Positions 1,058-35,138 of a stretch of 64,000 bases of DNA are shown piece by piece; positions within the stretch are counted from its first letter, which is position 1, and each line of letters starts with the position of its first letter. The stretch covers positions 96,001 through 160,000 of the forward strand of contig JBAXAI010000002.1 of NCBI GenBank assembly GCA_037142615.1, in the 5' to 3' direction. This DNA is from Spirochaetales bacterium. GTDB taxonomy: Bacteria; Spirochaetota; Spirochaetia; JABEVK01. Both the position numbers and the translations under genes were made by a program. The notes beneath the pieces are model-generated. The model saw nothing but the letters and a program-made list of their open reading frames with translations. It was not told where the DNA came from and made no database searches.

Positions 1058-1217
1058 CTTTCTGAGCTCAGTAATCAAGGATTCGTGGCGCGCTAAGCCT
1101 GTCTTTTCGGTCCCGATGGGAAGTGAGGTTCAAAGTCACTCTTGAGCAATGGCTTGGGTTGCACTAGCTTTGATTCAGACGGCTTCTACCCCGCGGGTCA
1201 GGAGGTTTCCACTCACT

Positions 1218-2684: not shown

Positions 2685-3235
2685 ACCTTGAAGTAGTTTC
2701 TGCAACCCCGGCTGACCTCAAGTCCATTATGAAGCTGGAGCACGAAGGGTTTGTAGCTGGAATCCGGGAGAATGCTGAGGTCTTTCTTCGCCGCGTTGAG
2801 GTCTTTCCGAACGGCTTCTTGCTGCTCAAACGCGATGATGCGGTGGTCGGGTACCTTTCAAGCGAGATTTGGCCCTATCGCGATCCTTTCGAGCCGGACT
2901 GGTTCTTGCTCGGTCACGATATTTCGACGCGCCACAAGGCGGACGGCGACGAACTCTACGTCTCTTCCATGACCATTTTGCCCGAGTTCAGGGGGCAGGG
3001 CATGGGTTCGGACTTGTTCCGCACCGCTCTGAGACAGCTCGAAGAGCGGTACAACGGCCTGCATTCCTGCATTCTCCTCGTGAACGAACGCTGGGACCAT
3101 GCCCGCCGAATCTACGACTCGCTGGAGTTTCGCCGCATCGGGACGTTGAAGCAATTCTTCCAGCCTCAGGGTTTGCCTGCGTCTGACGGATGGATTTGCC
3201 GAAGGCCGCTTCCCCTCACAAACGTCAGCACCTGA
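2681..3235 (+). CDS. GNAT family N-acetyltransferase
   Basis: ATGA overlap with the upstream stop. Acetyl-CoA motif ILPEFRGQGMGSDL and C-terminal ARRIYDSLEF. Confidence 0.85.
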   Translation: MNLEVVSATPADLKSIMKLEHEGFVAGIRENAEVFLRRVEVFPNGFLLLKRDDAVVGYLSSEIWPYRDPFEPDWFLLGHDISTRHKADGDELYVSSMTILPEFRGQGMGSDLFRTALRQLEERYNGLHSCILLVNERWDHARRIYDSLEFRRIGTLKQFFQPQGLPASDGWICRRPLPLTNVST

Positions 3236-4431
3236 TCGGTCAACAGAGGGCTGAACAGCACTTTGCCGAACAAGTCCGGTGGGCAACGGGAGCGCAGAAC
3301 GTCGGGCACCACGAGCACGGCACCCTCGCTGACCGGAGGTCGTGACATTCGCTCGACAACCTCGGCCATGGCAGCCTTCTGACGAACGCCGCGGGCCCCA
3401 GCAAGATAGCCTTCGACCAAGGCCTCGCGCGTTGCGGGTTCCACGTCGTCCTTCCCAAAAAGGGCCAGGGCCAACGCAGACTCACCGCTTTGACACAGGT
3501 ACTCGCAGAACAACCGGTCGTCCGAAGCCAGGCTTGTCAGCGTTGCTGTCGATTCGGACAACTCGGACTCGCCATCGCCTTTGCCCGAAAGCCACACCAA
3601 ACGTTCGGCGAGCGTCTCAAGGCGCACGGGGGCAACTGGGTTGCCAGCTGACTCCTTCAGAAAGCGCTGCACTTCGGGCCACGGCATCGCCGACAAGAGT
3701 TGACGCAGCAGCGAAAACGACCCCCGGGACAACAACTGCGCAAGGTCCCCGGACGCCTGGGTTGCTGGACTCCCGACAATTTCGGTAACCAAAGGCTCCC
3801 ACACCGGATTCTCGAGACTCTGAAGGCCCTTGAGGGCGGCGTATTGGTCAGAAAAAAGCAGGCTGGCCAAAACTTCGGCCGTCGGTGCCAAATACCCCGT
3901 CTCGAGACCTTCACCGCATGCGACCCTAAAGTGCCTGACGACGGCGCTCTCGAAATAGTCGGTGCACAGGCGGTCTACCAGTGGCTCCAGTTGCTCGAGA
4001 ATCTGGCGGTTCTGGGGCGAAGCCCAGTCGGTGTAGTACAGGACCACGGCGTTCTGGGCCAAAAGTCCAGGGCGCAGCGCCTCCAGAAAAGCTTCCGCGA
4101 AGGCCGACTCCCACAGAAACTCGATCTGAGTTTTCACCAACTCCGGCACCTCGGGGAGTTGCTGCTGGATATCGATGGACGCCAACAAGTCCTTCCATTG
4201 GTCGGACCCCTTGATTCGCGACCGGAGGAGTCTGAGGTCCAAACCGTCGGTCAAGTGAAACGTCGGAACCGTCTGCTTTCGGGAACGCAACAAGGCCAAG
4301 ATTTCCTCGCTGGCGTCCAAGTGGCAGAACTGAATCGCTTTGGTGCGAAAAAGGGCCGGAAAACGGTCGGACAGGTCAGCGATGCGACGCGCCGCCTCGA
4401 TTCCCAGCGAAAGCACGAACACGTGGCTCAT
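3166..4431 (-). CDS. Hypothetical protein with a degenerate tubulin/FtsZ-like N-terminus (last gene of the vWA-tubulin operon)
   Basis: Start at 4431 overlaps the upstream stop (ATGA). The N-terminus MSHVFVLSLGIEAARRI..IQFCHLDASEE parallels PTIFIGLGGSGSKTI..FIFSALDTDVEE of the 12139-15663 protein. Confidence 0.6.
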   Translation of the reverse strand: MSHVFVLSLGIEAARRIADLSDRFPALFRTKAIQFCHLDASEEILALLRSRKQTVPTFHLTDGLDLRLLRSRIKGSDQWKDLLASIDIQQQLPEVPELVKTQIEFLWESAFAEAFLEALRPGLLAQNAVVLYYTDWASPQNRQILEQLEPLVDRLCTDYFESAVVRHFRVACGEGLETGYLAPTAEVLASLLFSDQYAALKGLQSLENPVWEPLVTEIVGSPATQASGDLAQLLSRGSFSLLRQLLSAMPWPEVQRFLKESAGNPVAPVRLETLAERLVWLSGKGDGESELSESTATLTSLASDDRLFCEYLCQSGESALALALFGKDDVEPATREALVEGYLAGARGVRQKAAMAEVVERMSRPPVSEGAVLVVPDVLRSRCPPDLFGKVLFSPLLTDQVLTFVRGSGLRQIHPSDAGKP

Positions 4432-5930
4432 GCCCGGGGTTCCTTGGTCCGCTGGATAACCAACTTGAAGTCTTCCATCTTCCAGATTTCCAACTGAGGA
4501 CGAATCCACGCCTGGATGTTCTTCGGTTCGAGGCTGTCGAGGACCCTGGACTGCTCGCCTTCGCCGGTTCCGGAAACGTAGGTGATCAGCCGCCCCAGCA
4601 CAGGATATTGCCGTCGGATCTCGTGAAGGTAGGCCCGTGAGTCGTCTTTGAAATACCGGGTCAAGACTCGCGAAGCCTGACTCAGCACCAGGGCCCGACC
4701 GGCAAGGGCTAACAGAAACTCGGGCTCAAGCGATGGTTCGTCGTAGTTGAAGGCTGGAAGGTCGGCCAGGATCGAGTACTTGTTTGGTCGCTTCCAGGCG
4801 GCCAAACAAACGGTTCCGATGAGAACCGTCGCGGCTTCGTACAGAAACCGGGCAGGGGTGTCGAGCTTGAAGCTCAAGTGCAGTTGATGGCTTTTGTCGA
4901 CTTGGCGGTAGCTGACGTACGAAGCGTACAGGTCAACAAACAGCCGGTTGCCGGTGTTGTCGACAGGTCTTTCCGACTCTCCCTCGCTCTTCTGGATCAT
5001 CTTGCGGAAGAAACTCAGCAGCGCGGCCCACAGCGCACGCAGCAGTCGCCAGCGATGCTTCGGTGGTTCTTGAGGTGATACAGCGATCTCAAAGTGACTA
5101 TCCTCGGTTAGTGTTCGCCAAAGCTCGTTTTCTTGGATGAAGCCCGACTTACCGGCCATCACGTCCAGCAGTTTCTTAAGCTCATCGCCAGATTTCTGAG
5201 GCGCGACTTTGGCCGGCGGTGCCTCGGGCGCTGGCTTGGGCGCGGGAGTTTCTGCCGTGGGTGCGCTTCCGTCGGCTGGCGAGGTCGCTGGCGCCGGGGG
5301 AATAACCGTTTCGGCGGCCTGAAAGCGTCGCTTGAGTCCTTTGGGAAGAATGGCATCCCACTCGTCAACGAGCGACTGCCTCAACGAGTCGAGCGAAAAG
5401 GAGCTCTTGGTCAGTTGGTCCCGAAACTTGTCAAAGCTGTTCTGATAGCAGTCGGCACAGATGCTGCGGCCGACCACATTCCTTGCCAGTTCGTTGGCGC
5501 GGAACTGGTTCATCAAACTCGCGCCGTGAAGCGCCTGCACATCGTTTCTTCCCGCGACAACAGGCACCCCGCAGTACCCGCAAGTCCCCGCTTCGAACGA
5601 GAGTTCACGGATCTCGTGGAGGTGGTAAGAGCGGCGCACAGCCTCGATAACAGGGTCCCTGCGGCCTGTCAGGGCAGAACTTCCGGCAACCTTGGTGGCC
5701 CGCAGAAAAGAATCCTTAAATGCCTGCGCGGGAAGAACATCGTAGACGGTCTTGCGCCCTTCCTCCGCGCTCATGTCCTCAAAACAGAGCAGACAAGGGT
5801 TTCCTTCCCGGGAAAGGCACGAAAAGCAAATGTTCCCCTGACCATGCATGTAGCGTGAAGCGCTGCCTACCTGTTTTCCGCACTGGATGCACCGCCCGCC
5901 GGCCAGGTTCTTGTTCGTCTTGACCTTCAT
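4428..5930 (-). CDS. Multi-CxxC zinc-finger protein with a Pro/Ala-rich linker and an uncharacterised C-terminal domain
   Basis: Start at 5930 overlaps the upstream stop (ATGA). Five CxxC pairs (CIQC, CFSC, CLLC, CGYC, CADC) and a PAPATSPADG..PAPKPAPEAPP linker. Confidence 0.7.
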   Translation of the reverse strand: MKVKTNKNLAGGRCIQCGKQVGSASRYMHGQGNICFSCLSREGNPCLLCFEDMSAEEGRKTVYDVLPAQAFKDSFLRATKVAGSSALTGRRDPVIEAVRRSYHLHEIRELSFEAGTCGYCGVPVVAGRNDVQALHGASLMNQFRANELARNVVGRSICADCYQNSFDKFRDQLTKSSFSLDSLRQSLVDEWDAILPKGLKRRFQAAETVIPPAPATSPADGSAPTAETPAPKPAPEAPPAKVAPQKSGDELKKLLDVMAGKSGFIQENELWRTLTEDSHFEIAVSPQEPPKHRWRLLRALWAALLSFFRKMIQKSEGESERPVDNTGNRLFVDLYASYVSYRQVDKSHQLHLSFKLDTPARFLYEAATVLIGTVCLAAWKRPNKYSILADLPAFNYDEPSLEPEFLLALAGRALVLSQASRVLTRYFKDDSRAYLHEIRRQYPVLGRLITYVSGTGEGEQSRVLDSLEPKNIQAWIRPQLEIWKMEDFKLVIQRTKEPRA

Positions 5931-8668
5931 TCTTCGCCCACCTCGCTTTCCAGCGGGACCGCGTCGACAAAAGCCTTCAAAACGCTCGCCAGACCCGCCA
6001 GATTGCCAGCATCGAGAGCCGCCGGGTCCTCTGTCCTCCAGTGAGGCAGAATGGGGAGCCAAGCGCCTTCCTGCGGTGGCGTGCTGAGCTCGGCCGCCAA
6101 CGAAGTGAAGAAGCGCCGCACCGGCGAAACGGGGTCGTCGTGGTTCAGTTGGGCCTTGAAGAACTCCATCACGGCAAGGGCCAGTTCCGGTCGCGCATCG
6201 CAGGCAGGGACGAGCCGGAGGGCCGTCAAGCTGGCGCCTTCCAGCACGACCGAGGCGACCACCTCATGGTCGTACTGCCGCCACGCAAACTGGCAAAACA
6301 GGTGAAACGCGTGCTCGACCACGAAGTTGAGGTTGCTTCCGGCCGCGACATCAAGGGGCGCCTTGAACTTGAACCTCCGCTCGGCCATTTCGGGGGCCGA
6401 ACTCACGAGCGGCACTTGGTAGCCCGGCAGCGGCTGTCGCCCCACGTGGTCACCACTGAGACAACTGATCACCGGAGCGAGCGTGATGGCTTCGGCGCCG
6501 TTCGCTTCGGGGACCCAGGCCCGGGCAACCCTCAGATGTGGCGGGAATCCCCCGGTAGGAAGCTCGGCTTCCGGTGCTCGGGTGGCGGCCTGCTTCAGCA
6601 TGTCGACAAGCTCCAGGTTCTTGAGAAGAACGTCCAGAACCGCCCGTGAAACGATGGTGTCATCGACAACAAACCAGAGGATTCTCTCGTTGTCGGCGTC
6701 GGCCCCCGCAGCCAGGTCGAGCCGATGGAGCAGGGTCGGAATATCGCCCATTCCGACGGAACTTTGGCGTCGGGAGAAGCCGCTCCGGCGTTTTGAGTCG
6801 CCGCCATCGATCAACCAGTCGTGGGTGAGCTCGCGGCTTTGGATGTAGTCCAACGAGTAGAGGCGACTGAGCGATGGAAAGAAGGACGAGGCCGACCAGT
6901 AGCGCCCTCCGTCCCAAAACACCGGCCCTGCGCCAAAGTTCTGCACCGTCGCCATCACAAACGGCGGCGCCTCGCTTCGGGCAACTTCTTCGATCGCGTC
7001 GGGCCGATAGCCCGTGCTTTCGGGGGTTTCGGCTGGAGCCGACGGGCTCATCAGCACGATCGAAGTGTGGAGGGGTTGCGGCGGTTGGAGCGAGAAGCAG
7101 TCTCGGGGCCCAAGACCCGCGGTGACTTGCTTTGCCAGCGACAGCGACGACTCCAGCGACCCGAAGCGCACCTGCGATACCCTCAAGGCACCCTCAGCCC
7201 CCCGCAAAATTGCCAAATGGTCGAGCTTGTCTAGCACCTGCCGCGCCGTTGCGAGCCCTTGCGAGGTCATCGAGTCGAGGTCACCTACGTAGGCGATCGA
7301 CAGGTCTCTGGCCAGGTCACCAAAGGAGTAGTAATTCTCGCTGCCGTCTTCTTCCGGAAGCACTAGCTTCTTTGAGACATCAAAGTACAGGATATCGGGA
7401 ATCTCGAACTTGGCTTGGAACTTGCCGTACTCCGACAGGTCCCGCAGAACCACGGTTCGTTTCAGCCATTCCAGATTGTCAAAGACCGAGGCAAAGCGCT
7501 CGCGAAGGTCCGCCGCCGCCGCCTTGTCGTGCAGAAGGAACAGGGCCTTCTTGCCGTCCAAGACGCCCGACAGGGCGCTGAAAAGGCAGGTGGTCCGCAT
7601 CCCGCTGCCGATGGCACCGCGGATCACCAGGTTCCGTCGCTTCTCGATCGCTTCGATGATCGAGATTTGTTCCTGGCGGAACTCGCGTATCCCCATCACG
7701 CTCAGCAGATCCTTCTTGCGGGTAGCGCCCACGATCCAAGGGTTGCCCGCCTCCTGATAGAGCTTTTGCGACGTGGCAGAGAACTGCCGACGAAGGTTCC
7801 AGGGCTGGGACACTTCCTTCAGGTTGAGTTTGTAAGGGATTTGACCACTGGCAAACCTCTCCTTGAGGTAGCGCGAAATCAGGGCCATGTCGGGGACAAC
7901 CTCAGTCGTCAGATCCTTGTTTTCGATCAGTTCCTCTTTGGGAGTTTTGGGAAAAGCTCTGGAAAGGAACCAAAAGGTCGTCCCTAACGGGATCCAGAAG
8001 AAGTCAACGACCCGAAAGTCGGGAAAGACGGTCGTTTGGCCCTGGAGGAGCGTCGTGAGCCAGTCAATGTCTCCACCCAGGAGTTTGAAGAGGGGTCCCC
8101 AGCCATTGGCAAGCACCCACGCGCCTTCGGCCGCCATCGACAGCATTCCGACAATGCAAAGGGTTCGCATCCACTTCCCGTACAGGGGATACACGAACTT
8201 ATGCTTGTGCCGTTTGATGCCAAAAAAGTACTTGATCACCGCCAGATAGCCTTCGTTGGTCCGGAAGTTCAAGGCTTCCTGGATCGGTCGAAGCACCAGA
8301 AACGCAATCGAGGTGACGAAACTCCAAAAGGCGGCAAAAAGCAAGGCAACAGCCGAGATGGGCAGGAGATTCATCAGGAACTTCTCGAGACTAATTCGGT
8401 TGCCCGGCGAAACGAAGTCGGCAAGCTGACCGTTGCCTGCCTGGCCTTTTTCGATGAGGGACCCGAGACCCAGGAACTGGCCTGCTGAATCGACCACGGA
8501 ACTGGTCACCGACGCGAAGAGCGCGCGGAAGAACGAGTGCTGGCCGGTGAGCAGACCAAACAGGGCCTCGGACAGCACCGCAAGAACGGCCAGAACGAAC
8601 ACGGTCAGGCCGAGGATACCGTAAAAGGAATAGTCCGTGTAACTGGCGAACGGTTTCGATTCTTTCAT
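5927..8668 (-). CDS. Polytopic membrane protein fused to a degenerate (probably inactive) SF2/DEAD-box-like helicase domain
   Basis: Start at 8668 (TGATG overlap). Four to five hydrophobic helices in the first ~240 aa. Then FRQEQISIIEAI (Q motif), GAIGSGMRTT (motif I without Lys), KALFLLHDKAAAAD (Ia), PDILYFDV (Ib) and AYVGDLDS (altered motif II). Confidence 0.65.
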   Translation of the reverse strand: MKESKPFASYTDYSFYGILGLTVFVLAVLAVLSEALFGLLTGQHSFFRALFASVTSSVVDSAGQFLGLGSLIEKGQAGNGQLADFVSPGNRISLEKFLMNLLPISAVALLFAAFWSFVTSIAFLVLRPIQEALNFRTNEGYLAVIKYFFGIKRHKHKFVYPLYGKWMRTLCIVGMLSMAAEGAWVLANGWGPLFKLLGGDIDWLTTLLQGQTTVFPDFRVVDFFWIPLGTTFWFLSRAFPKTPKEELIENKDLTTEVVPDMALISRYLKERFASGQIPYKLNLKEVSQPWNLRRQFSATSQKLYQEAGNPWIVGATRKKDLLSVMGIREFRQEQISIIEAIEKRRNLVIRGAIGSGMRTTCLFSALSGVLDGKKALFLLHDKAAAADLRERFASVFDNLEWLKRTVVLRDLSEYGKFQAKFEIPDILYFDVSKKLVLPEEDGSENYYSFGDLARDLSIAYVGDLDSMTSQGLATARQVLDKLDHLAILRGAEGALRVSQVRFGSLESSLSLAKQVTAGLGPRDCFSLQPPQPLHTSIVLMSPSAPAETPESTGYRPDAIEEVARSEAPPFVMATVQNFGAGPVFWDGGRYWSASSFFPSLSRLYSLDYIQSRELTHDWLIDGGDSKRRSGFSRRQSSVGMGDIPTLLHRLDLAAGADADNERILWFVVDDTIVSRAVLDVLLKNLELVDMLKQAATRAPEAELPTGGFPPHLRVARAWVPEANGAEAITLAPVISCLSGDHVGRQPLPGYQVPLVSSAPEMAERRFKFKAPLDVAAGSNLNFVVEHAFHLFCQFAWRQYDHEVVASVVLEGASLTALRLVPACDARPELALAVMEFFKAQLNHDDPVSPVRRFFTSLAAELSTPPQEGAWLPILPHWRTEDPAALDAGNLAGLASVLKAFVDAVPLESEVGEE

Positions 8669-11600: not shown

Positions 11601-12120
11601 ACCAGTGCAGAGCGCAAAACCCATCGTGATCGGGCCTCAGGACCAGCTCGGCGAGAGCGCTGAGCGCGGGCTCGGCCAAGGCCTTGAGGTTGGCCTTGAG
11701 CCACGTTGGCAACCACGGACTGCCGCAGGCTGCTGCCCAATGCAGGAGGCTCCAGCCTTCACTGTCGTCGAGCTCGAAACGAGGCCCCGACCCGAGGTAG
11801 TCCGAGAGGGCTTGCCAGTCCAGGCCCGCTTTGTTCTTTCTCGGGAAGGTCCTGTCGAGCAGTTCGTTGGCGCCAGCTTGGTCAGTACACCTCAAAAGCA
11901 GTGCTTGCGCCGAAGGCGGCACTTGCTGGCCGGGGTGCCCTTCACGGGGTTCCTGCGGTTGCTCGTCCAGTTGACAACGTCGCTGGACCTGATACGGGAC
12001 ACGCGAGGGGTCCGGGTCAAAAAGGTGAGGCGAGCCTTCCAGGGTGTCAGCTGCCTTCGCCCCAAGACTGACGACAAGAGTTTTGTACCGGACCACAAGA
12101 TTTGTCTGGCGCTCTGTCAC
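8668..12120 (-). CDS. Ankyrin-repeat-containing degenerate tubulin-like protein with coiled coil and two C-proximal TM helices
   Basis: GTG start with AGGAG upstream. Ankyrin motifs DSEGWSLLHWAAACGS, DHDGFCALHWSCKQGS and QTLRDLAAYEGNDAIL. Segments resemble the neighbouring tubulin-like protein. TMs FMIFTVIGAALSTFLLV and LLAAGIGMAAIVWGIFLLL. Confidence 0.7.
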   Translation of the reverse strand: MTERQTNLVVRYKTLVVSLGAKAADTLEGSPHLFDPDPSRVPYQVQRRCQLDEQPQEPREGHPGQQVPPSAQALLLRCTDQAGANELLDRTFPRKNKAGLDWQALSDYLGSGPRFELDDSEGWSLLHWAAACGSPWLPTWLKANLKALAEPALSALAELVLRPDHDGFCALHWSCKQGSLATFEALWALLPESSWVGALTQKAFDDVSPQTLRDLAAYEGNDAILQAVLKLEDRAKVADVGFRFDKSTALQICDALKESPELTAASESPFSEVYARRCDKLVLEEARGWITGARSEQDLDRAIDQTELNAVILLENTSELNQRLLWVVDYLEKWDFSVVVVSIVGEDRSTLFSIPTYLKHCLRRRWGLKYLWERFDAYSRRNDGDKRRKQDDAQAHRKVIAFESRLTRVFLVDKESNRGSTLEPEDVMHAARSLMRLLAVTLESGDGRDDANLRSLFRLVFQRDNVHFATDNRAIERLCVDPAKPSKGTSFAEYLGRLLDDLDRTTASYACAGIFSLEAQLLDLKRYVELDQASKALEYLADPPGELVKDKIAVEPSGVGRANLIAREALDKFQLAELDRELLKDNSGSSAEVPSTLLIDHIYSAFGHVLHVNLADRLSNDSLGVEPILLLEDCKAPEVPLTARDGRPVKSRFPDKTVLSFREMAGPLRPVRFFRSLKEFNFETTRHTLRVVDEGVEAMKEVHDSRLNPSLILRNQDKQKRLSQILERAIQEQLQPDLTSKEVHSQPFANWRLVPYMLQELGQILGSHFTPKLRADALAPGTEAERTPLSSRLQRETVTQAEGFVEAIERLPKSRFMIFTVIGAALSTFLLVSPELGDGLHAAQFISSWLTKMAQTTGVPSPVLNLLAAGIGMAAIVWGIFLLLRSGVRTRYVKLKSKISEFLTERYRAQYEALELRLAIGNVASANRLKQQVAEWESWLKGMDGRISGFKTEVTKCLEDTRLKLSGETSFLRKALIKEEQAGKEGRSREALLLANSIIPKDLQVRTFQGVFIRTSEIFNKGKTTEQLLEKLRSGESYDLLSDDQTRELLSAVVELPSIRERVGAFVETHASRREVMFQVRKLPQYTLVETNQTFFGIMVKTLADRGMKSSLRTSLLREDEDFLGMNFINLCLHLDYPTMKEALGQWERD

Positions 12121-12138
12121 GCGGTTCTAGCTCCTAGT

Positions 12139-15100
12139 TCAACTGACGACCGGCCAAAAGAACTCCTCGAAGGGAGCGCAAGCGGCACGCAGGCCCTCTG
12201 CCCAGGCCGCCTCGTCGTCGCAGCGTTTGGCAAAGGCAAGCGTGCTGTTATACAACTGCTCCACAAACACACTCGTCTTGTTCTTCCGTGTCGAAGCCTT
12301 GTTCAGGTAGGTGGCCAGAACGCTCAGGTAACCGGTTAGTTCCTTCTGCCACGCCACCTCGCGCAATTGAACGTTTTCGACCAAGCGGAGCTCCAGCCGT
12401 TTTTGGCATACGGCCCCGTCAGCCAAGCCGAAGTTCACGCGGAAGAGCTTGAACACCGAGAGCAAGTTGACTGGATCCTTGTCTTCCAGCTTGAGCGGCG
12501 TCGATGCGAACCGTTTGGAGTAGGTGCTCAGGTCGTCTTCCAGGCTGTCGGGTTTCCAATCGCCCGACATCCAGGCAGAGGATTTGTGGGTACCCTTTTC
12601 TTCGGTCACGTGCAACAGCGGCGAGGTCGAGTCGTCCTTGGAATCCCGTTCGCGTCCCAAGGCCAGCCAAACGAGGAAAAAGGCCTTGATCTGCTGGTTG
12701 AAGTACGCGTCCAGGTCTTCGAGCTCGCGGCTCCAATCCTGATGGATGTGCGTGGTGATGGCCGAATCGCGCAGCTCCTGGTAGTAGGCGGCCTTCATTG
12801 AACCATTGCCGGTAAACAGGTTTTCGACCTTGCCCAGGTCGAACGCCAGGTACGACTGGTAGAACAGCACCCGGTTGTCGAACGACTCTTCGAGTTTGTC
12901 GGTTTCGGTTTCGGGGAAGATTCCCGGTGCCGACTTCAGGTACTCCTGCAACACTTTGCCGAGTTCCTGCTGCACCTTGGACGTGCAGGCGTAGCTCTGG
13001 ATCTTGTTGACCCGGTTGTCGCCCTTGCTGATCCGAATAAACGGCGCTGACAAACCGAACGCGGCCTTGGCCTTGTCCTTTTTGTATTCCTCAATGTCGC
13101 GTTCGGTGCTTTCCGGATGAAGCATCTTGGCCTCTTCTTCCAAGGCGGCCCCGATCGACAGGTCCAGCGAGTGGTGCTTTTCGATTTTTTGGAACACGGC
13201 CTCGACCATGCCCTCGCGCACTTCACCGACGACCTTTTTGGAGGCTCGGTTTGACTCGTCTTTCATGCGTTTGAGCACATCGCCGGAATCCAAGGCCTGC
13301 TTTTCGAAATCCTCCAGCTTTTCGGTCAGGGAGTTCCAGTTCTTCATGACCCCATCGGTCAGCGAATTGTAGAACTCGGCCAACACCTGGTTCGAGTCCA
13401 TCTTGAAGATCTGCTGCATGAACTTCTGGATGGCCTCCTCGCTCGCCAAGACCGTGATCTTGGAGTTGTCGGGGTAGATTTTGTCTTCGAACTTGCCCGA
13501 GTGTTTGACGGCTTCGAGACCCGCCGCGACCTGACGTTTGAGGTCGCTCATCTTGTCGAACAGGCCATGGATGCAGTTGAGCAAACCCTGAGGCTTTTCC
13601 GGATCGATGCGGTCCAGAAACTGGCCGACGAAGGTCTCGAGAATCGCGAAGAAATGGAGTCCCTGCGACCAGCCGTTGTTCTTGACAACGAGACTGCCGT
13701 CGGCTTGTCTGGTGGTCTCGAACCGGGTGTAGCTCGAAAGCCTGTAGTTCGAAAAGGCGGCATCGCCGGGCAACAAGAGGAACTGCTGGAACAGTTCTTT
13801 CATCTGGTTGAGGTTGGTTTTTTTGGAAAGTGCCAGCACCGGCTGCTCGATGAGCGAGTTAAGGCTTTCAAAGCGTTTCTGAACCTTCCCGAGTTCCTCT
13901 TCGAAGGAGTTCAGTCCCCTGGAGGAGTCTTCCTTTTTCCCTGCGCCGGAACCTCCGGTGACGGAGTTCGCCAACAAGACCCTGTAAATGCTCAGGGTTT
14001 TGTAAAGCGTCGAAAGCAGGTACCGGATTTCAAACAGATTGCGTTTGCTGCCGTCGCCGCCGGGAGCCTTGAGCAGGTTTCCCAAACGGTAGGCTTGCCC
14101 CTGAACCCCCGAGTCCTGAAACACGTCTTCGACGATGCCACGAAGGTTCTCTTTCTGGAAGCGCTCGGCACGTTTGCGAAGTCGCTTCATGTCGGAAAGC
14201 ACTGCGTAGACGCCGCTTTTGGTTCCCATCTGGGCTTCGATCGCCTGCGACCTCAGGGTTCCGTCCTTTTCAATAAACTGAGATTGGGAAAGGACTTGTT
14301 CCACATACTCCTTTTGAATCCGCTTCACGACCTCCGTCCAGTAGCTGTCGTAAGTGGTCGGATTGTTCGGGGTGTCGGGGCTACCGTCGATGGCGATTCG
14401 GATTCCCACAAAAGGCACGGGGAATTGATTGGCCAAGGCCTGGACCTGAGTGAGGAAGGCTTCTTCGCGGCGAGGTTTCGATACCGGTTTGCCTTCCGCT
14501 TTTTCGCGTTCATACTGGGCGTTCGCGACCAGATAACCGGCGTCGGCCTTGAGCCAGTAGCCTTCTTCGCCAAAGGTTTTGTTGAGGTACTCGTACGACA
14601 GGCGCCAGGCGATGTCCTTGCGCGGGAAGATCAGGGCTGAGAACCCGAAGGAACTGTAGCGCCGGCTTTTCTCGCCACCTTTCACGGCTTTCAGCAAGCT
14701 GTTGATGAAATTGTCTTCCGCGCTGCCGGCCTTGTCGGCGATCGGCGAAAAAACCTGCATGTAGAGGCAGTGCGCAATTTCGCGGTAGTAGTGCTCGTAG
14801 CCCGGCCCGGGAGTTTCAAACGGGATGCCGGAGTCCCGGGTCTTGTCGAACAGCACACACCAGTCAAAGGGACGTTCCGACAGGTAGCGCTCGGCGTTCT
14901 CGACGATGTTCGCCTGAAAGTCGGGTTGCGCGAGGTAGTTGAACGGCGGAATGTAGTCGACATACTCGCGCGACGAATCGGCGTAACCGATCGCTGCTTC
15001 GAGTTCCTTGAGGCTGGCGTAACCGTTGGCCCGCAGCCGGTTGTAAAGCGAAGGCTCTTGCCCGCCCTGACAGAACACTTCGGGCATCATCAGTACGGCC

Positions 15101-15663
15101 CGCATATCGACCTTTCGGCCCTTAAGGAGTTCGCGCACCTGATAGCCGATCATGTTGAACAGCGCGCTGCCGGTGCCACCGGCGGTCGAGGCGATGACGT
15201 AGATGCGCAACATGTTGTCGGAGGTGTCCACGTTGGCGGTGATGCCCTGAACCTTGGTCAGAATCGCGTTGATTTTTTCCTTGAGGTTGTTGTTTTCCAT
15301 CTGGTAGTGGTAGCCCAACCGCGACGTGATGCGGATCTGGCCCGCACCTTTGTCGAGGGGTTTGGTGTTGAGCATCCCCGTGTCGGCCGGCCACCACGAG
15401 AAGAAGTCGGTGTCGTTGGCGTTGCGCTTGTCTTCGATGTAGCGCGCGACGTTGACGTTTTCGGAGGTTTTGATCTGGTTCTCGTCGGGGATTCCGCTGG
15501 CGCGCAATTCCTCGACGTCGGTGTCGAGGGCCGAAAAGATGAACTGGTGGTCGACCAGCGGGGTGTACTCCGGCGTGGCCAGGCAGAGTTCGCGGAGGAA
15601 CCGGATTGTCTTGCTTCCGCTGCCCCCGAGTCCGATGAAAATGGTGGGAAAGTACTTCTTCAT
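12139..15663 (-). CDS. Tubulin/FtsZ-like GTPase (Tubulin_2/FtsZl-type) with a long alpha-helical C-terminus, 1174 aa
   Basis: IFIGLGGSGSK, ALDTD, GAGQIR, ASTAGGTGSA (tubulin signature) and ANGYASLKEL motifs. RBS AGGAG 7 nt before the ATG. Confidence 0.9.
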   Translation of the reverse strand: MKKYFPTIFIGLGGSGSKTIRFLRELCLATPEYTPLVDHQFIFSALDTDVEELRASGIPDENQIKTSENVNVARYIEDKRNANDTDFFSWWPADTGMLNTKPLDKGAGQIRITSRLGYHYQMENNNLKEKINAILTKVQGITANVDTSDNMLRIYVIASTAGGTGSALFNMIGYQVRELLKGRKVDMRAVLMMPEVFCQGGQEPSLYNRLRANGYASLKELEAAIGYADSSREYVDYIPPFNYLAQPDFQANIVENAERYLSERPFDWCVLFDKTRDSGIPFETPGPGYEHYYREIAHCLYMQVFSPIADKAGSAEDNFINSLLKAVKGGEKSRRYSSFGFSALIFPRKDIAWRLSYEYLNKTFGEEGYWLKADAGYLVANAQYEREKAEGKPVSKPRREEAFLTQVQALANQFPVPFVGIRIAIDGSPDTPNNPTTYDSYWTEVVKRIQKEYVEQVLSQSQFIEKDGTLRSQAIEAQMGTKSGVYAVLSDMKRLRKRAERFQKENLRGIVEDVFQDSGVQGQAYRLGNLLKAPGGDGSKRNLFEIRYLLSTLYKTLSIYRVLLANSVTGGSGAGKKEDSSRGLNSFEEELGKVQKRFESLNSLIEQPVLALSKKTNLNQMKELFQQFLLLPGDAAFSNYRLSSYTRFETTRQADGSLVVKNNGWSQGLHFFAILETFVGQFLDRIDPEKPQGLLNCIHGLFDKMSDLKRQVAAGLEAVKHSGKFEDKIYPDNSKITVLASEEAIQKFMQQIFKMDSNQVLAEFYNSLTDGVMKNWNSLTEKLEDFEKQALDSGDVLKRMKDESNRASKKVVGEVREGMVEAVFQKIEKHHSLDLSIGAALEEEAKMLHPESTERDIEEYKKDKAKAAFGLSAPFIRISKGDNRVNKIQSYACTSKVQQELGKVLQEYLKSAPGIFPETETDKLEESFDNRVLFYQSYLAFDLGKVENLFTGNGSMKAAYYQELRDSAITTHIHQDWSRELEDLDAYFNQQIKAFFLVWLALGRERDSKDDSTSPLLHVTEEKGTHKSSAWMSGDWKPDSLEDDLSTYSKRFASTPLKLEDKDPVNLLSVFKLFRVNFGLADGAVCQKRLELRLVENVQLREVAWQKELTGYLSVLATYLNKASTRKNKTSVFVEQLYNSTLAFAKRCDDEAAWAEGLRAACAPFEEFFWPVVS

Positions 15664-15672
15664 GGTCTTCTC

Positions 15673-18072
15673 CTAATACGGCGCCCTGGCCGAGTCTTGT
15701 GTGGAATCGTAGTCGTAGTTGTCTTGGAAGGCCTTGGCACCCGGGCTCCCCCGGTACGCCAAGCCGTACTCGAAGGATTGTTGCATGTCGGAGAACTGGT
15801 CGGTCCGGTAGCTGCTGCGGGGCGGCAAGGCCAGGGAGCGAACCATAGGTTTCGCGTTTCCTTCCGAGTTGTCCGGATGGTAGGTCCTCTGAATCGATCC
15901 GCGGTTCTCGATGTTCAAGCGGAACCTCCCCCGGTCGAACACGCTGAAGGCCGGGCTGAACCAACGGTTGGCCATGGCCACGCCGGAATCGATGGCCTGC
16001 GGGCGCAACAGCCTCAAGGAGGGGGGAAAGTGTTTGCCGGCAACGAGCTTGAAGAGAACCATGAGCGCCAGGAAGGCGCAGACTCCCTCGAAAACGACAA
16101 AAAGCAGCAGATTCAACAGGTCGGCGAACGATGGCCCCACCTCGACCTTGAGAGGCAGGTCGAACACCTTGTCGCCGTGCAGCAGGATCGGGACCGACAA
16201 ATCCCCACCGCTGGAGGCCTTTTGACCGACGCCCAGTCGTGAGGCTTGCAGTTGCAGTTGGTCGGTATCGGCGGTACCACCAACACTCAGATACTTGCCT
16301 GTGTGGCCGATGCCGCTCAGTTCTTCCAGTTTCGGGGTGAAGCGCAACCTCCCCGTGTCGAGCGTGCTGTCGGCCGTGGGCTTGAACACGACGTTTCTGG
16401 CGGTGCCGGTACCCATGCGAAGCGGTGGCGGCGTGCCGACCAGTTCGGCCTTGTTGGTCTCAGAAAAACTGAAGGTGTAGATTTCGCTGCGGATCTGGGT
16501 GACCTTGTTCTGGAACCGTACGAAGAACTGGTAGCTCCCCGGCGAGTCAAAGACCCCGCTGCCATGGTAGACCAAGGCGCCTTCCTCGGTCGGGGTGAGC
16601 GGATAGGTCACTTCGGGTCGCCCTGCCAGGCCCACCACCAGGTCGAAGGCGGCTTCCTTGGTGTAGAAGTCGGGGTTGGCGTACGTGCTCCCATCGGAGA
16701 TGTTGACCAGCCGTACCTTGTCGACGGTGATGTTTCGCTTTTTGAAGTCGAAGTTGAAGCGCGCGTTGATGGCAAGGTCGAGCACTTGCATGAACGACAC
16801 CTGATCGGGATTGCGGTTGACGCGTAGCGACCACTTGCCGGTGCCATAGCGATCGGGACGGCCGACCTTGAACGCCCGGTAGCGCTGGTCGCCGCCCTGG
16901 TAGTTGCCTGGCTGCGCGAACTCGGCAGCCGTGAACTCCTGGCCGTCGGGCTTGACCAGGGTCAGGGTCAGGTTCTGGATGTCGTGGTCGTAAACAATGA
17001 AGTTGACCTCTTTGGCGACGGGCAAGAAGGGGTCGAAGACGAACGAACCGCTGGCGTCGTTGGCGTCCTGCGACTGGGGCACTTCGCGGGTGTCCCAAAT
17101 CTTGGCCAGAATCTGCTTGAACACCGCCGGCAACTCATCGGCCTTGGAAACCTGATACGGTTCTTCCCAGGTGATGCGCCGCATTTGCTCCAGGTCGGCC
17201 TTGTCGCCGAGCCCGATCGAAAAGGCCGAGATCTCCTTTTGATGCAGAACGTCGCGCAAGGTTTCGGGAATGGGCTTGTTCTTGGGGTCAGCTTCCATGT
17301 CTGAAAGCAGGATCAGGTATTTTCCGTAACTGCCATCGACCCCGTCGAGCAACTGGGCCGATGCGAGAACGCCCGCCGTGATGTCGGTACCACCGTTGTA
17401 CGGCGCCTCGAGGGCCTTCTTGACGAGCTCCTTGGTCTTGGCCTGGTTGGACTCAATCTTGGTCAGGGGGAGTACCTTCAGGACCTTGCCGTTGAAAAAA
17501 ACCGCACCGACCTGCTGGCCTTCGGACACCAGGTCGGTGAGCAAGTGCGAGGCCAGGATGGCCAACCTATCCGGGTCGTTGCCAATCGTCCAGGCCAGGT
17601 CGGTGTTGTTCGCTTTGCCATTGTCGGGGTTGGGACCCATCGAGCCAGAAACGTCGATGCACACGACGATGGCCTGCTTTTGCTTTTTCAGCGTCCCGTC
17701 GGATTCCACCTGATCGGGTGCGCTCTTGGAGGCTGCGGTTTGGAAAGGGTGGGTTGCCAAGGTTGACGTATTGGTGAGCTTGACGGGTACCTCAAGGGGA
17801 GCCGGGTCGACATCGTAGGATTTGATAAAATGATCGTACGAGCCGGGGCCGAACCAAAAGAGCAACCAGAGGAAGAGGGCAAGGGCAAGCAACCCCACCA
17901 GGCGGTAGCGCGACAACGCCAGATACTTGCCAAGAATAAGGTGGTCAAACAGCACCAGCACCAGCAACCCGGCGAGGGCGATCGGGACTCCGACCTGCCC
18001 TTCCAGTTGGGTGGACAACTTATTGAATGATTCTGTCAGGAAAGCGGTATCCAAGTCTCCTCCAGCCCCCAC
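15673..18072 (-). CDS. Membrane-anchored von Willebrand factor A (vWA) domain protein
   Basis: MIDAS DVSGS, GGTDI and ILLSD. Two N-terminal TMs and one C-proximal TM flank the vWA and beta-rich domains. The start may instead be TTG at 18054 (GGAGG just upstream). Confidence 0.85.
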   Translation of the reverse strand: MGAGGDLDTAFLTESFNKLSTQLEGQVGVPIALAGLLVLVLFDHLILGKYLALSRYRLVGLLALALFLWLLFWFGPGSYDHFIKSYDVDPAPLEVPVKLTNTSTLATHPFQTAASKSAPDQVESDGTLKKQKQAIVVCIDVSGSMGPNPDNGKANNTDLAWTIGNDPDRLAILASHLLTDLVSEGQQVGAVFFNGKVLKVLPLTKIESNQAKTKELVKKALEAPYNGGTDITAGVLASAQLLDGVDGSYGKYLILLSDMEADPKNKPIPETLRDVLHQKEISAFSIGLGDKADLEQMRRITWEEPYQVSKADELPAVFKQILAKIWDTREVPQSQDANDASGSFVFDPFLPVAKEVNFIVYDHDIQNLTLTLVKPDGQEFTAAEFAQPGNYQGGDQRYRAFKVGRPDRYGTGKWSLRVNRNPDQVSFMQVLDLAINARFNFDFKKRNITVDKVRLVNISDGSTYANPDFYTKEAAFDLVVGLAGRPEVTYPLTPTEEGALVYHGSGVFDSPGSYQFFVRFQNKVTQIRSEIYTFSFSETNKAELVGTPPPLRMGTGTARNVVFKPTADSTLDTGRLRFTPKLEELSGIGHTGKYLSVGGTADTDQLQLQASRLGVGQKASSGGDLSVPILLHGDKVFDLPLKVEVGPSFADLLNLLLFVVFEGVCAFLALMVLFKLVAGKHFPPSLRLLRPQAIDSGVAMANRWFSPAFSVFDRGRFRLNIENRGSIQRTYHPDNSEGNAKPMVRSLALPPRSSYRTDQFSDMQQSFEYGLAYRGSPGAKAFQDNYDYDSTQDSARAPY

Positions 18073-18195
18073 ACAAGGCTAGGTCATGCGCAGCGACAAT
18101 GCAAATGGATTGTTATTTTCCCTACGTTCTTCAACAAATGCCCTCAACTCATGCGCACCATGGAAATGGAAACAGCCATGAACTATAGTGGACCC

Positions 18196-19815: not shown

Positions 19816-19841
19816 CGCACCCGACACCTCAGGAGTCCCCC

Positions 19842-24601: not shown

Positions 24602-24610
24602 GAGCACCGG

Positions 24611-29477: not shown

Positions 29478-29550
29478 GGGGATTTAGCTCAGTTGGTAGA
29501 GCGATTGGTTCGCAATCAATAGGTCAGGGGTTCGATTCCCCTAATCTCCA
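29478..29550 (+). tRNA. tRNA-Ala (anticodon CGC), CCA not encoded
   Basis: Acceptor stem GGGGATT/AATCTCC with the G3:U70 Ala identity pair. D-arm GCTCAGTTGGTAGAGC, anticodon loop TTCGCAA, T-loop TTCGATT. Confidence 0.97.
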
Positions 29551-35068: not shown

Positions 35069-35103
35069 TTGACATTGACATTTCCCCAAACTCACCACAC
35101 AGT
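35069..35103 (+). promoter_or_regulatory. Putative sigma70 promoter of the SPFH operon
   Basis: Tandem TTGACATTGACA (35069-80), with CACAGT 17 nt after the second copy. Confidence 0.4.
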
Positions 35104-35138
35104 TGACGTTAGTCGCGCCGGCGACAGGGGGATTTCGC

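Follow-up and report, generated by a model that had tools for sequence, protein, structure and literature searches.

A candidate lineage-specific six-gene variant of the vWA-FtsZl1 membrane module in a spirochaete genome

Gene layout and coding signal

The window, a stretch of 64,000 nucleotides, comes from an uncultured freshwater spirochaete. In its ORF map six tightly packed open reading frames, g1 to g6, occupy positions 3166-18072, all on the minus strand (Table 1). Script-read junctions show a gap of 9 nt with TAGGAG between g1 and g2 and one of 18 nt with AGGAG between g2 and g3, followed by a 1-nt overlap at g3/g4 (TGATG) and 4-nt overlaps at g4/g5 and g5/g6 (ATGA each). This is the layout that the first-pass annotation had described: six co-oriented genes, with these overlaps, gaps and AGGAG sites. 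The stop/start overlaps from g3 through g6 point to coupled translation of one set, and all six genes are predicted to form a single translationally coupled operon.

Table 1. Coordinates of genes and predicted features at the locus
Feature	Residues (aa)	Window position (nt)	Strand	Length or basis
g1, predicted membrane vWA protein		15673..18072	-	799 aa
g1, two N-terminal hydrophobic segments	22-79	17836-18009	-	hydropathy
g1, vWA domain	135-319	17116-17670	-	Pfam VWA
g1, C-terminal hydrophobic segment	643-682	16027-16146	-	hydropathy
g2, FtsZl1 / Tubulin_2 GTPase		12139..15663	-	1174 aa
g2, GTPase domain	8-362	14578-15642	-	Pfam Tubulin_2
g3, ankyrin + hydrophobic hairpin protein		8668..12120	-	1150 aa
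g3, ankyrin repeats	~111-186	11563-11790	-	Pfam cut-offs passed in homologues
g3, conserved core	~320-640		-	
g3, hydrophobic hairpin	814-888	9457-9681	-	hydropathy
g4, predicted membrane region + degenerate SF2-helicase-like segment		5927..8668	-	913 aa, start ATG at 8668
g4, N-terminal polytopic membrane region	11-187	8108-8638	-	hydropathy
g4, degenerate SF2-helicase-like segment	322-399	7472-7705	-	hhalign
g5, soluble five-CxxC protein		4428..5930	-	500 aa
g5, CxxC region	14-161	5448-5891	-	sequence
g6, soluble protein, no known family		3166..4431	-	421 aa
Divergent intergenic region, g1 / exported caspase gene		18073..18150	.	78 bp; ORF map and sequence

All six genes show coding-type periodicity, with GC3 of 0.69-0.80 vs GC2 of 0.37-0.45, and in this they resemble the Lon gene of the window. 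Contigs from RNA libraries (two runs of one study) overlie parts of all six genes, which is not proof of transcription; two of these contigs span the g2/g3 junction. The promoter of the operon presumably lies in the divergent region upstream of g1. A promoter scan of this region returned nothing on the minus strand, and the totals did not exceed those of shuffles.

The core pair and its four partners

The product of g1 matches Pfam VWA (5.5e-8, 33.7 bits, cut-off 23.8) and VWA_2 (1.1e-6), and a complete MIDAS can be read from its sequence: D140, S142, S144, T229 and D258. Its middle part is beta-rich, and a tail of ~120 aa follows the C-terminal hydrophobic segment. The VWA match and the hydrophobic segments support the earlier description of a transmembrane vWA gene. 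By the positive-inside rule the vWA domain is most likely on the periplasmic side. Further, residues 134-558 align with family 5 of the genes found upstream in other Tubulin_2 loci (hhalign probability 94.7%, E 5.8e-8), and g1 is homologous to the gene that precedes Tubulin_2 there.

The second protein is the sole Tubulin_2 match in its genome. It scores 1.2e-49 in Pfam (residues 8-362) and 379 bits against a 120-sequence Tubulin_2 profile built here, retains both GTP loops, GLGGSGS (11-17) and AGGTGS (161-166), and carries a C-terminal extension of ~800 aa beyond the GTPase domain. The annotation of g2 as an intact tubulin-like GTPase is therefore sound. Hydropathy reveals no hydrophobic segment, and g2, its GTP-binding loops intact, is predicted to be an FtsZl1 protein of the cytoplasm. 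Full-length homologues (P0004, P0005, P0006) share 62%, 58% and 45% identity with it. Tubulin_2 has no structure in the PDB, where the best profile match, 3zid (E 0.0017), covers the T4 loop only, and searches of one literature library found no experimental work on FtsZl1 proteins.

In g3 the ankyrin repeats fall below the Pfam cut-off, but they exceed it in the homologues P0002 and P0210; together with hydropathy this upholds the ankyrin and transmembrane parts of the first-pass annotation, and g3 is probably anchored in the membrane by its hairpin. The C-terminal domain is conserved. The kin of g3 are a few metagenomic proteins only: P0002 (39% identity over the whole length), P0124 (a C-terminal fragment, 2e-125) and, more distant, P0127 with its cluster mate P0210 (1380 aa; 22% identity over 916 aa, E 2e-27). 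When a profile of g3 and P0002 was searched against 1.84 billion representatives, three homologues were recovered, and all else matched the ankyrin part. A g2 homologue and a g3 homologue each lie on a single contig; both contigs are 17,010 bp, which suggests, but does not prove, that the two share one contig.

In g4 residues 322-399 align with a profile made from 18 DEAD domains encoded in the same genome (hhalign probability 90.4%, E 1.4e-6, score 52.4). Scores reached no more than 21.1 among 40 shuffled sequences and 16.3 among the five other proteins of the operon. The same segment appears in a genome-wide DEAD scan (E 0.06), Pfam gives sub-threshold matches to ResIII (0.02) and DEAD (0.047), and the ESM Atlas gives a lead to DEAD-domain clusters (0.86). 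As in SF2 helicases of the DEAD/ResIII type, the segment covers the Q-motif, motif I and motif Ia of domain 1. It differs from them in that GSGMR replaces the Walker-A GxGKT, so that the lysine is lost, in that the DExx motif and Helicase_C are undetected, and in its fusion to an N-terminal polytopic membrane domain. For residues 322-399 the membrane-anchored inactive SF2 helicase proposed earlier is supported, and g4 is best described as a putative membrane-anchored protein with a disabled helicase-derived segment. A near-length word-based search found no homologue of g4 other than itself.

Five CxxC pairs, at 14, 35, 46, 117 and 158, are read in g5 just as had been reported. They are followed by a linker rich in Pro and Ala (aa ~205-245) and then by a C-terminal domain of no known family. 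No Pfam family matches g5, and zinc-finger matches to Csf1 are weak (E 0.004-0.005, far below cut-off); the protein is probably of a multi-CxxC zinc-finger type. Finally, g6 has no match in Pfam, PADLOC or NCBIfam, its AF2 model (pLDDT 37) is too low for use, and it appears to be an orphan.

Distribution, related systems and neighbourhood

We compared the locus with 80 Tubulin_2 loci from other species and with 8 from other spirochaetes. In 76 of the 80 the gene immediately before Tubulin_2 is of the vWA type (families 2 and 5, mutually related at hhalign 97.9%), so the vWA and Tubulin_2 pair is the conserved core. Makarova & Koonin 2010 (Biol Direct 5:33, PMC2875224; PF13809 Tubulin_2) had already described the pair, and the first-pass annotation was right to name the link as established. 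Downstream partners vary by lineage, as passages of that paper also state: Bacillus cereus-group loci have none, 15 loci carry families 10 and 9, and 7 carry family 22. Relatives of g3-g6 were found in 0 of the 80 loci and 0 of the 8 spirochaete loci. Of the proposed six-gene combination, the g1-g2 pairing thus recurs widely, while homologues of g4-g6 were not found in the 88 loci.

Among 401 genomes sampled from the phylum, 35 contain Tubulin_2, which was not found in the one other genome of the same family; g3 is present in one of the 401, the window's own. The patchiness of Tubulin_2 and the rarity of g3-g6 suggest an accessory module, and the four partner genes seem to occur almost nowhere else, making the variant a rare one. 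The Tubulin_2 family is represented by 7 of 72,556 plasmid records and by one phage record, which lacks annotation, and is absent from the viral contigs scanned. Zinc ribbons appear to recur with the family: a PF13240 ribbon is fused in 8 of 120 listed homologues, and the last gene of a Psychrobacter locus is zinc-ribbon-NACHT-like.

The closest known systems are the vWA / FtsZl1 operons as portrayed in passages of PMC2875224. There too a membrane vWA gene with MIDAS is followed by an FtsZl1 gene with a long C-terminal extension, and the additional partners differ between lineages and are for the most part associated with membranes. However, their OmpA-family, protein kinase and P-loop GTPase partners are undetected here, and g3-g6 match no partner family of the 80+8 comparison loci. 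Any of them may equal one of the families A1-A2 and B1-B9 that Makarova & Koonin list. A second comparison is with the GAP1-N2-type GTPase-centric conflict systems (Kaur, Burroughs, Iyer, Aravind 2020, eLife 9:e52696, PMC7159879). The relevant parts of that paper describe a tubulin protein with a helical C-terminal extension next to a multi-TM protein with an extracellular vWA, with inactive enzyme domains and superstructure-forming repeats as components, and see in these systems an NTP-dependent assembly that serves in biological conflict. Neither the GAP1 GTPase that defines them nor their FNIII-repeat protein is detected here. In the Myxococcota-type cassette of vWA, FtsZl1, motif-less FtsZl1 copy and P-loop genes (families 5-TUB-10-9), a vWA gene is likewise followed by FtsZl1 and then by large partners without nucleotide motifs, but g3-g6 reach a profile probability of 4% or less against families 10, 9 and 22.

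Genes adjacent to the operon look defence-like. Before a tRNA-Ala gene come the exported caspase gene beside the operon (PADLOC caspase 4.5e-12), a gene for an IetA-like AAA ATPase (3.8e-13) and two for DUF4062-STAND proteins that carry TPR or WD40 repeats; after the tRNA gene comes a PDC-S01-like gene (1e-38). Abstracts of three 2026 preprints describe DUF4062 as an anti-phage NADase domain. Relatives of the caspase, AAA and STAND neighbours occur in 0 of the 80 comparison loci, and the neighbourhood link is therefore a single case. PADLOC models match none of the six proteins, which leaves the anti-phage activity suggested earlier without backing from that source, and no toxic effector (nuclease, protease, NADase or pore former) is recognisable in the operon.

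Possible mechanism and role

We give about an even chance to the reading that this locus represents a rare variant of the vWA-FtsZl1 membrane module, six genes long and specific to its lineage, working as follows. The periplasm-facing vWA domain of g1 would bind a ligand via its metal site, and the membrane segments and cytoplasmic tail would relay the signal to g2, which would assemble GTP-dependently at the inner membrane face. There the co-translated partners g3-g6 would form a platform, with g3 and g4 as membrane tethers; the ankyrin, dead-helicase and zinc-finger parts may be binding modules rather than enzymes. In this scheme we infer how the proteins sit in the membrane, that they form a complex and which way the signal travels. 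Its weakest step is the role: most likely the system perturbs or remodels the membrane as part of a conflict or defence-type response, and is not a housekeeping cytoskeleton. In the sections concerned, Kaur et al. 2020 (PMC7159879) count tubulin and transmembrane-vWA neighbourhoods among the GTPase-centric conflict systems, in which, they remark, inactive enzyme domains occur frequently.

It is possible, if somewhat unlikely, that in normal physiology the pair acts with its membrane partners to give the inner membrane its shape or make it bud (vesicles, envelope upkeep), with no role in phage conflict. Makarova & Koonin 2010 proposed membrane remodelling, arguing in passages of PMC2875224 that almost every partner is membrane-associated, and hydropathy marks hydrophobic segments in three of the six proteins here. 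The Bacillus cereus-group loci, from many species, hold the two-gene pair in much the same surroundings, a pattern that resembles a stable cell-biological function more than it does a mobile defence gene; the missing effector and PADLOC match, and the rarity on plasmids and phages, fit this as well. However, the patchy occurrence in the phylum and in the family, the fast turnover of partner genes and the defence-like neighbours speak against it, and neither a helicase-derived domain nor ankyrin repeats are obvious membrane-shaping parts.

The first-pass annotation had pictured an envelope-spanning complex, possibly with anti-phage or membrane-remodelling activity, in which an active g2 and two degenerate relatives, a tubulin-like paralog (g3) and a tubulin-like remnant (g6), form a heteropolymer at the membrane and g4 is a nucleic-acid-sensing pseudo-helicase. 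We consider this model, read as an anti-phage device, improbable. The helicase ancestry of g4 is real; nucleic-acid binding is a guess, since only the first ~80 residues of the helicase domain are detectable. Like Tubulin_2 proteins, g3, P0210 and g6 begin with a hydrophobic strand and then (S/G)L(G/D), and in hhalign three Tubulin_2 motifs line up along g3 in their proper order. The ESM Atlas clusters nearest to g6, proteins of 450-570 aa with 169 shared features, have Tubulin_2 in 11-48% of members, but at a score of 0.87, below the reliability bar. Two tubulin-type genes in one system also have precedents: two spirochaete loci hold two Tubulin_2 genes, family 10, which comes after Tubulin_2 in 16 other loci, itself faintly resembles Tubulin_2 (hhalign 52%, E 1.4e-4, 192 columns), and parts of PMC7159879 mention firmicute systems with two tubulin genes. 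Against this, BLASTP of g2 with g3 and with g6 gave no match, the 120-sequence Tubulin_2 HMM left both in the noise with all filters off, and the hhalign E-values of 0.02-0.05 lie within the range of shuffled sequences. A Tubulin_2 T1-region model ranked g6 1540 among 6933 genome ORFs and did not include g3 among the 3345 that it scored; the g3 and P0002 profile reached only ankyrin beyond its three homologues, and the glycine-rich T1 and T4 loops are absent from both proteins. Thus g3 and g6 fail every Tubulin_2 profile test, none of BLASTP, HMMER and hhalign going beyond shuffled controls, and the paralog, the remnant and the heteropolymer all lose their footing, with the ESM features as the one remaining lead, for g6.

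Least probable of all is that the functional module is g1-g2, perhaps with g3, and that g4-g6 are an unrelated, fast-evolving orphan cassette co-transcribed by chance: the empty search with g4, the 0 of 88 loci with g4-g6 homologues and the sufficiency of two genes in Bacillus cereus-group loci would fit, but the stop/start overlaps argue for one co-translated set, the codon-position GC pattern of g3-g6 equals that of g1-g2, and other FtsZl1 loci likewise carry tightly packed downstream gene strings.

Operon structure and the vWA-FtsZl1 core

All six genes of the operon, g1 to g6, lie on the minus strand, and the layout described in the first-pass annotation, with stop/start overlaps and with 9- and 18-nt gaps carrying AGGAG, was recovered completely when the sequence was read by script. 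The 9-nt gap separates g1 from g2, with TAGGAG ahead of g2, and the 18-nt gap separates g2 from g3, with AGGAG ahead of g3. Further downstream g3 and g4 overlap by 1 nt (TGATG), and both g4/g5 and g5/g6 by 4 nt (ATGA). The codon-position GC of all six genes (GC3 0.69-0.80, GC2 0.37-0.45; 0.82 and 0.39 for the Lon gene in the window) is the pattern of real genes in the host genome. In a scan for consensus promoters and terminators the number of sites was not above that in shuffles.

Features of the operon and its surroundings, in window coordinates
Feature	Position	Strand	Remarks
g1	15673-18072	-	799 aa; ORF, start fitted to junction
g2	12139-15663	-	1174 aa; ORF, start fitted to junction
g3	8668-12120	-	1150 aa; ORF, start fitted to junction
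g4	5927-8668	-	913 aa; ORF, start fitted to junction
g5	4428-5930	-	500 aa; ORF, start fitted to junction
g6	3166-4431	-	421 aa; ORF, start fitted to junction
DUF4145 + FGE-sulfatase fusion	1149-2684	+	PADLOC PDC-M16A, weak, 2e-5
Caspase + AAA ATPase	18151-21401	+	ORFs overlap by ~85 nt as listed
Two DUF4062 STAND NTPases	21434-29431	+	N-terminal DUF4062 in both
tRNA-Ala(CGC)	29478-29550		directly after the STAND genes
DUF4143 protein	29590-30552	-	PADLOC PDC-S01, 1e-38
SPFH/Band-7 + C-terminal double zinc ribbon	35103-36329	+	Band_7_1 1.3e-34, DZR 5e-17

Metatranscriptome contigs from two libraries of one study match pieces of all six genes at 99-100% identity, and the junction of g2 and g3 is spanned by two (11736-12606 and 11968-12217). 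RNA libraries can contain DNA and a contig over two genes is not the same as a single transcript, so these contigs are a weak hint of expression of the operon; their depth cannot rank the genes, and the parts of the operon without cover (X14, 15/30 bins; X18, 13/30 bins) are uninformative on expression. One base is missing in contig X18 at 11211, inside g3, and single contigs differ by one base at 7801 (X18), 8225 (X3) and 9905 (X6); depth is below 5 at these four positions and the differences may be errors. The locus is otherwise near-identical across runs of several studies.

Within the tubulin/FtsZ superfamily no branch has diverged further than the FtsZl1/Tubulin_2 proteins, which are present in many phyla and always accompanied by a membrane vWA protein. 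The only Tubulin_2 gene of the host genome is g2, which matches the Pfam family at aa 8-362 (1.2e-49; 170 bits, cut-off 27) and retains GLGGSGS and AGGTGS. The GTPase domain is followed by a C-terminal extension of ~800 aa; the family profile gives weak matches to helical-bundle PDB proteins. With a 35-member profile no solved structure was found for the family, the best match being 3zid (E 0.0017), in the T4 loop alone.

In g1, aa 135-319 match Pfam VWA (5.5e-8; 33.7 bits, cut-off 23.8), and the MIDAS set read from the sequence is complete: D140-x-S142-x-S144, T229 and D258. Hydropathy places two hydrophobic segments in the stretch aa 22-79 and a third at 643-682. An acidic N-terminus, together with the many K/R residues of the short loop joining the first two segments, suggests under the positive-inside rule a periplasmic location for the vWA domain and the beta-rich part behind it, with the final ~120 aa in the cytoplasm. 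With both Pfam matches over cut-off and with MIDAS and GTP loops intact, the pair is what the first-pass annotation took it for, a membrane-anchored vWA gene upstream of an intact tubulin-like GTPase.

Such pairs are a known kind. The FtsZl1 family was defined by Makarova & Koonin in 2010 (PMC2875224), and in the part of that paper dealing with the operons most predicted FtsZl1 operons contain a vWA gene, in which the MIDAS is as a rule intact. Diverged P-loop GTPases, kinases and OmpA proteins are given there as frequent but not universal partners, while the remaining ones are mostly lineage-specific membrane proteins. Our operon resembles this description in that g2 adjoins a co-oriented vWA gene across a gap of 9 nt; the long extension of g2 may correspond to the coiled-coil or helical C-terminal extensions described for FtsZl1. 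It differs in that the P-loop GTPase, protein kinase and OmpA-family partners named in that part are not found in g1-g6, where Pfam families of these three kinds remained without a match when the proteins were scanned piecewise and E was relaxed to 10.

Kaur et al. 2020 (PMC7159879), in their treatment of these neighbourhoods, count tubulin plus transmembrane-vWA among the GTPase-centric 'conflict systems'. Unlike the GAP1-N2 system as outlined there, our locus has neither a GAP1-type TRAFAC GTPase nor an FNIII-repeat component; no such Pfam family occurs in g1-g6, and the flanks hold caspase, AAA ATPase and STAND proteins. A 2023 survey (PMC9871819), where it touches on Tubulin_2 proteins, merely puts them aside as divergent. 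Our literature search turned up no experimental work on the family, whether on its function or on its polymerisation. Whether the six proteins match a known defence system, a question raised by the first-pass annotation, is answered in the negative for the system models of PADLOC-DB 2.0: no component was matched, and the only rows were at chance level (Hhe 0.023 for g4, typeIV_Cas8 0.0052 for g5).

To place the pair among its relatives, 185,579 species genomes were pattern-scanned with a 35-sequence Tubulin_2 alignment. This gave 549 relatives, and the best 80 loci were kept, all at no more than 33% identity to g2. The same-strand ORFs of these loci were clustered into families. In 76 of these 80 loci the gene directly upstream of Tubulin_2 belongs to one of two vWA-type ORF families, 2 and 5, that are related to each other (hhalign 97.9%), and g1 itself matches family 5 at aa 134-558 (hhalign probability 94.7%, E 5.8e-8). 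Therefore g1-g2 is a conserved core, and the co-occurrence of FtsZ-like families with vWA proteins that had been cited as established extends to the comparison loci.

The partner genes g3 to g6

The fourth gene had been annotated as a membrane-anchored, inactive SF2 helicase. In Pfam, g4 aa 329-405 stay below threshold, with ResIII at 0.02 (15.3 bits against a cut-off of 22.5) and DEAD at 0.047 (13.9 against 26), and in a six-frame DEAD scan of the host genome the g4 site is row 29 of 45, at E 0.06. ESM Atlas features together with a low-confidence ESM model lead to DEAD-domain clusters (0.86), which is a lead only. The decisive comparison is with a profile built from the 18 top-ranking DEAD domains of the host genome: hhalign matches g4 aa 322-399 to it with a probability of 90.4% (E 1.4e-6, score 52.4), while the maximum of 40 shuffles is 21.1 and the other five operon proteins reach at most 16.3. 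At the Walker-A site g4 has GSGMR, with M357-R358 aligned at K-T of GxGKT. The match and the lost K-T therefore support the annotation: g4 is a membrane-anchored protein with a helicase-derived segment that is almost certainly ATPase-dead.

The homology is confined to this segment. Unlike an SF2 helicase, g4 lacks an over-threshold domain-1 match, GxGKT, DExx and Helicase_C; at the position expected for motif II it reads, by eye, DLDS, and past motif Ia no similarity to SF2 helicases was detected. A phmmer search of PDB sequences with aa 300-740 gave no match, and AF2 without an alignment reached a mean pLDDT of 37.3, too low for the model to be of use.

The description of g5 as a 5xCxxC protein is accurate, as five CxxC pairs lie within residues 1-161. 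These are followed by a Pro/Ala-rich linker and a C-terminal half without assigned family, and the only database match is a chance-level zinc-finger similarity to Csf1. Zinc ribbons are recurrent alongside the Tubulin_2 family: 8 of the 120 g2 relatives listed carry a fused PF13240 ribbon. In Psychrobacter the last gene of an FtsZl1 operon (locus L034, 19108-21213, plus strand) combines an N-terminal zinc ribbon with a NPHP3_N/NACHT-like NTPase, a possible instance of the 'GTPase fused to a cysteine-rich domain' that Makarova & Koonin mention among the partners.

Both g3 and g6 had been read as tubulin-like, the former as an ankyrin-bearing membrane paralog of g2 and the latter as a third remnant. 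For g3 the ankyrin and hairpin layout stood, and is shared with a metagenomic homologue (P0210), but its tubulin likeness found no profile match beyond shuffles; the same lack of support, by BLASTP, Pfam, HMM and hhalign, applies to g6. BLASTP for tubulin-like g3 and g6 returned nothing, neither has a Pfam Tubulin_2 match, and the glycine-rich T1 and T4 loops are absent from both. A Tubulin_2 HMM of 120 sequences, run with filters off, gave g6 -2.8 bits and did not list g3. With hhalign both align to Tubulin_2 at E 0.02-0.05, within the spread of their own shuffles, and a T1-region model ranked g6 1540th of 6933 genome ORFs, with g3 outside the 3345 that were scored. The AF2 model of g6, made without an alignment, has a mean pLDDT of 37.2 and is likewise of no use, and a complex prediction of g2 aa 1-480 with g6 scored 0.00, a value which, obtained without controls, weighs neither for nor against binding.

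Only three weak points favour tubulin likeness: hhalign places three Tubulin_2 motifs in the correct order in g3; an N-terminal 'hydrophobic strand + (S/G)L(G/D)' is common to g3, g6 and two metagenomic g3 homologues (P0002 and P0210); and in the ESM-feature neighbour clusters of g6, 11-48% of members have Tubulin_2 (0.87 with 169 shared features, below the bar of the tool). Judged from sequence, a tubulin fold in g3 and g6 is possible but unproven.

A diverged second subunit may exist elsewhere. Family 10, an ORF family of ~770 aa found right after Tubulin_2 in comparison loci, is a faint relative of it (hhalign 52%, E 1.4e-4, 192 columns), and Myxococcota-type operons therefore seem to include, as a rule, another tubulin-like subunit that is highly diverged. 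The family 10 ORFs lie about 3.3 kb beyond the start of Tubulin_2 in L015, L018, L020, L023-L026, L030, L032, L039, L043, L045, L051, L057 and L063. In other spirochaetes two loci hold two Tubulin_2 genes each, L103 (1-1710 and 4016-6046, minus strand) and L104 (2-2929 and 13111-15939, plus strand), and in a Treponema-like locus (L101) the Tubulin_2 gene precedes four or five tightly packed genes unrelated to g3-g6.

Distribution and partner turnover

Three of the proteins, g2, g3 and g4, were used as queries in large protein databases. Among 5.8 billion clustered proteins g2 has only three full-length relatives, all metagenomic (P0004 at 62%, P0005 at 58% and P0006 at 45%), and the other 116 matches listed cover at most 47% of g2, that is its GTPase domain. 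The same search gave one full-length relative of g3 (P0002, 39%). A g3 profile search of 1.84 billion representatives added P0127 and a C-terminal fragment, P0124; the remaining 83 matches align best over the ankyrin part, and the one examined, P0125, is an ankyrin protein. The 1380-aa P0210, a cluster mate of P0127 from a 7,347-bp contig, aligns to g3 over 916 aa (22% identity, E 2e-27) and shares its layout, with ankyrin repeats, then the core, the hairpin and a C-terminal domain. For g4 there was no match beyond g4 itself. For P0002 as for P0004 the source is a single contig, 17,010 bp long in both cases, so the homologues of g2 and g3 are perhaps neighbours in a second organism, which is a hint and not proof.

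Within the phylum, 35 of the 401 genomes sampled have Tubulin_2, which is thereby present in 23 of 153 genera, while g3 is present in one genome, that of the host itself. In the 80 Tubulin_2 loci phmmer found nothing with g3, g4, g5 or g6 and one weak match with g1; in eight spirochaete Tubulin_2 loci phmmer found no relative of g1 or g3-g6. The co-occurrence on which the first-pass annotation let its reading depend thus holds for the g1-g2 type of pair, but not for g3-g6 (0/80). Searching genome, metagenome and viral contigs with the g2-subfamily alignment gave no related locus, and the g3 alignment found nothing in viral contigs. A second metagenome-contig scan returned only L003, which is identical to window 3159-9544 and is the same DNA rather than an independent instance.

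What follows Tubulin_2 changes between lineages. Families 10 and 9 (~1010 aa) are found downstream in 15 of the 80 loci, mostly Myxococcota, and family 22 (~1280 aa) in seven, while no downstream gene recurs in the Bacillus cereus-group loci. In dozens of species of that group (L006-L083) the vWA-type and Tubulin_2 pair stands without further conserved partners, in recurring contexts. It is shown by these comparisons that the operon belongs to the vWA-FtsZl1 class and that, with g2, g3 and g4 as database queries, its four partners are confined to one very small metagenomic clade. New here are the partner set and the first clear sign of a helicase-derived component in an operon of this already known kind.

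The host genome is 4.27 Mb in 76 contigs and 96.7% complete. FlaA, which sheathes the periplasmic flagella of spirochaetes, is matched three times in it and in none of 14 control genomes. Near-identical DNA to at least part of the stretch occurs in 20 freshwater/lake metagenome rows from 10 studies. Six of these carry at least half of the words of the stretch, and two are possibly the source of the window DNA; the habitat label is taken from rows with at least half of the words, leaving small-share runs aside. In G159, the only other genome of the family of the host, the decarboxylase flanking the operon has a match at just 30-37% identity and the flanking MFS gene was not found; a synteny comparison is not usable.

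Neighbouring genes and possible function

Divergent from g1, at a distance of 78 bp, a caspase gene begins a plus-strand series. The caspase (Peptidase_C14 5e-36, PADLOC caspase 4.5e-12) carries an Lcl_C domain besides its hydrophobic N-terminal leader and is exported, and the AAA ATPase after it has IetA as its best PADLOC match (3.8e-13); the two might be an IetAS-like pair in which a caspase takes the place of the subtilase. That they are part of the system of the operon was considered and dropped, with relatives in none of the 80 Tubulin_2 loci. Next are two STAND NTPases, one of 1055 aa (DUF4062, NPHP3_N/NACHT and TPR repeats) and one of 1606 aa (DUF4062, AAA_16 and WD40 repeats), neither with a PADLOC 2.0 match. 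DUF4062 is an anti-phage NADase domain according to the relevant parts of three 2026 preprints, and the stretch from the STAND genes over tRNA-Ala to the DUF4143 gene looks like a defence island. With its caspase, IetA-like, DUF4062-STAND and PDC-S01-like genes, the operon therefore borders a defence-type cluster. Relatives of these neighbours were found in 0/80 comparison loci, so the link is a single instance.

In the mechanism that we propose, a ligand would be bound by the periplasmic MIDAS site of g1, and the signal would reach cytoplasmic g2 via the membrane segments and tail of g1, with GTP-driven assembly of g2 at the membrane. Coupled translation would give a fixed proportion of g3-g6, which would provide a membrane platform and, in the ankyrin repeats, the helicase remnant and the zinc fingers, binding surfaces.

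Four observations incline us towards a conflict or defence role for the operon: its distribution is patchy, its partners turn over fast, it contains an inactivated enzyme domain, and its neighbours are of defence type. Against this, the operon has no recognisable effector and no defence-model match. A strong alternative is membrane remodelling, the function put forward for FtsZl1 operons in the passages of Makarova & Koonin on their role; the stable two-gene pair of the Bacillus cereus group looks more like ordinary cell biology. The ankyrin, helicase-remnant and zinc-finger partners point away from pure membrane shaping and towards sensing or conflict. The conflict reading could be carried further: g1 would trigger co-assembly of active g2 with nucleotide-blind, highly diverged tubulin-fold g3 and g6, in the manner of the exchangeable and non-exchangeable sites of alpha/beta-tubulin, and g4 and g5 would read foreign nucleic acid at the inner membrane, making up a new membrane-tethered immune or stress device. 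In this full form we consider it improbable.

To the core question on FtsZl1 this variant adds little, being a compact case with unusual partners; should g3-g6 prove to be binding partners of g2, they would offer a way to work out the signal that drives the family.

On the other side of the operon lies the DUF4145 and FGE-sulfatase fusion. FGE-sulfatase-type (FGS) domains are described as effectors of cyanobacterial vWA-MoxR systems in the corresponding part of Kaur et al. 2020 (PMC7159879). Further along the window, the SPFH/Band-7 gene is followed by two ORFs without Pfam family, at 37065-39194 and 39194-40132.
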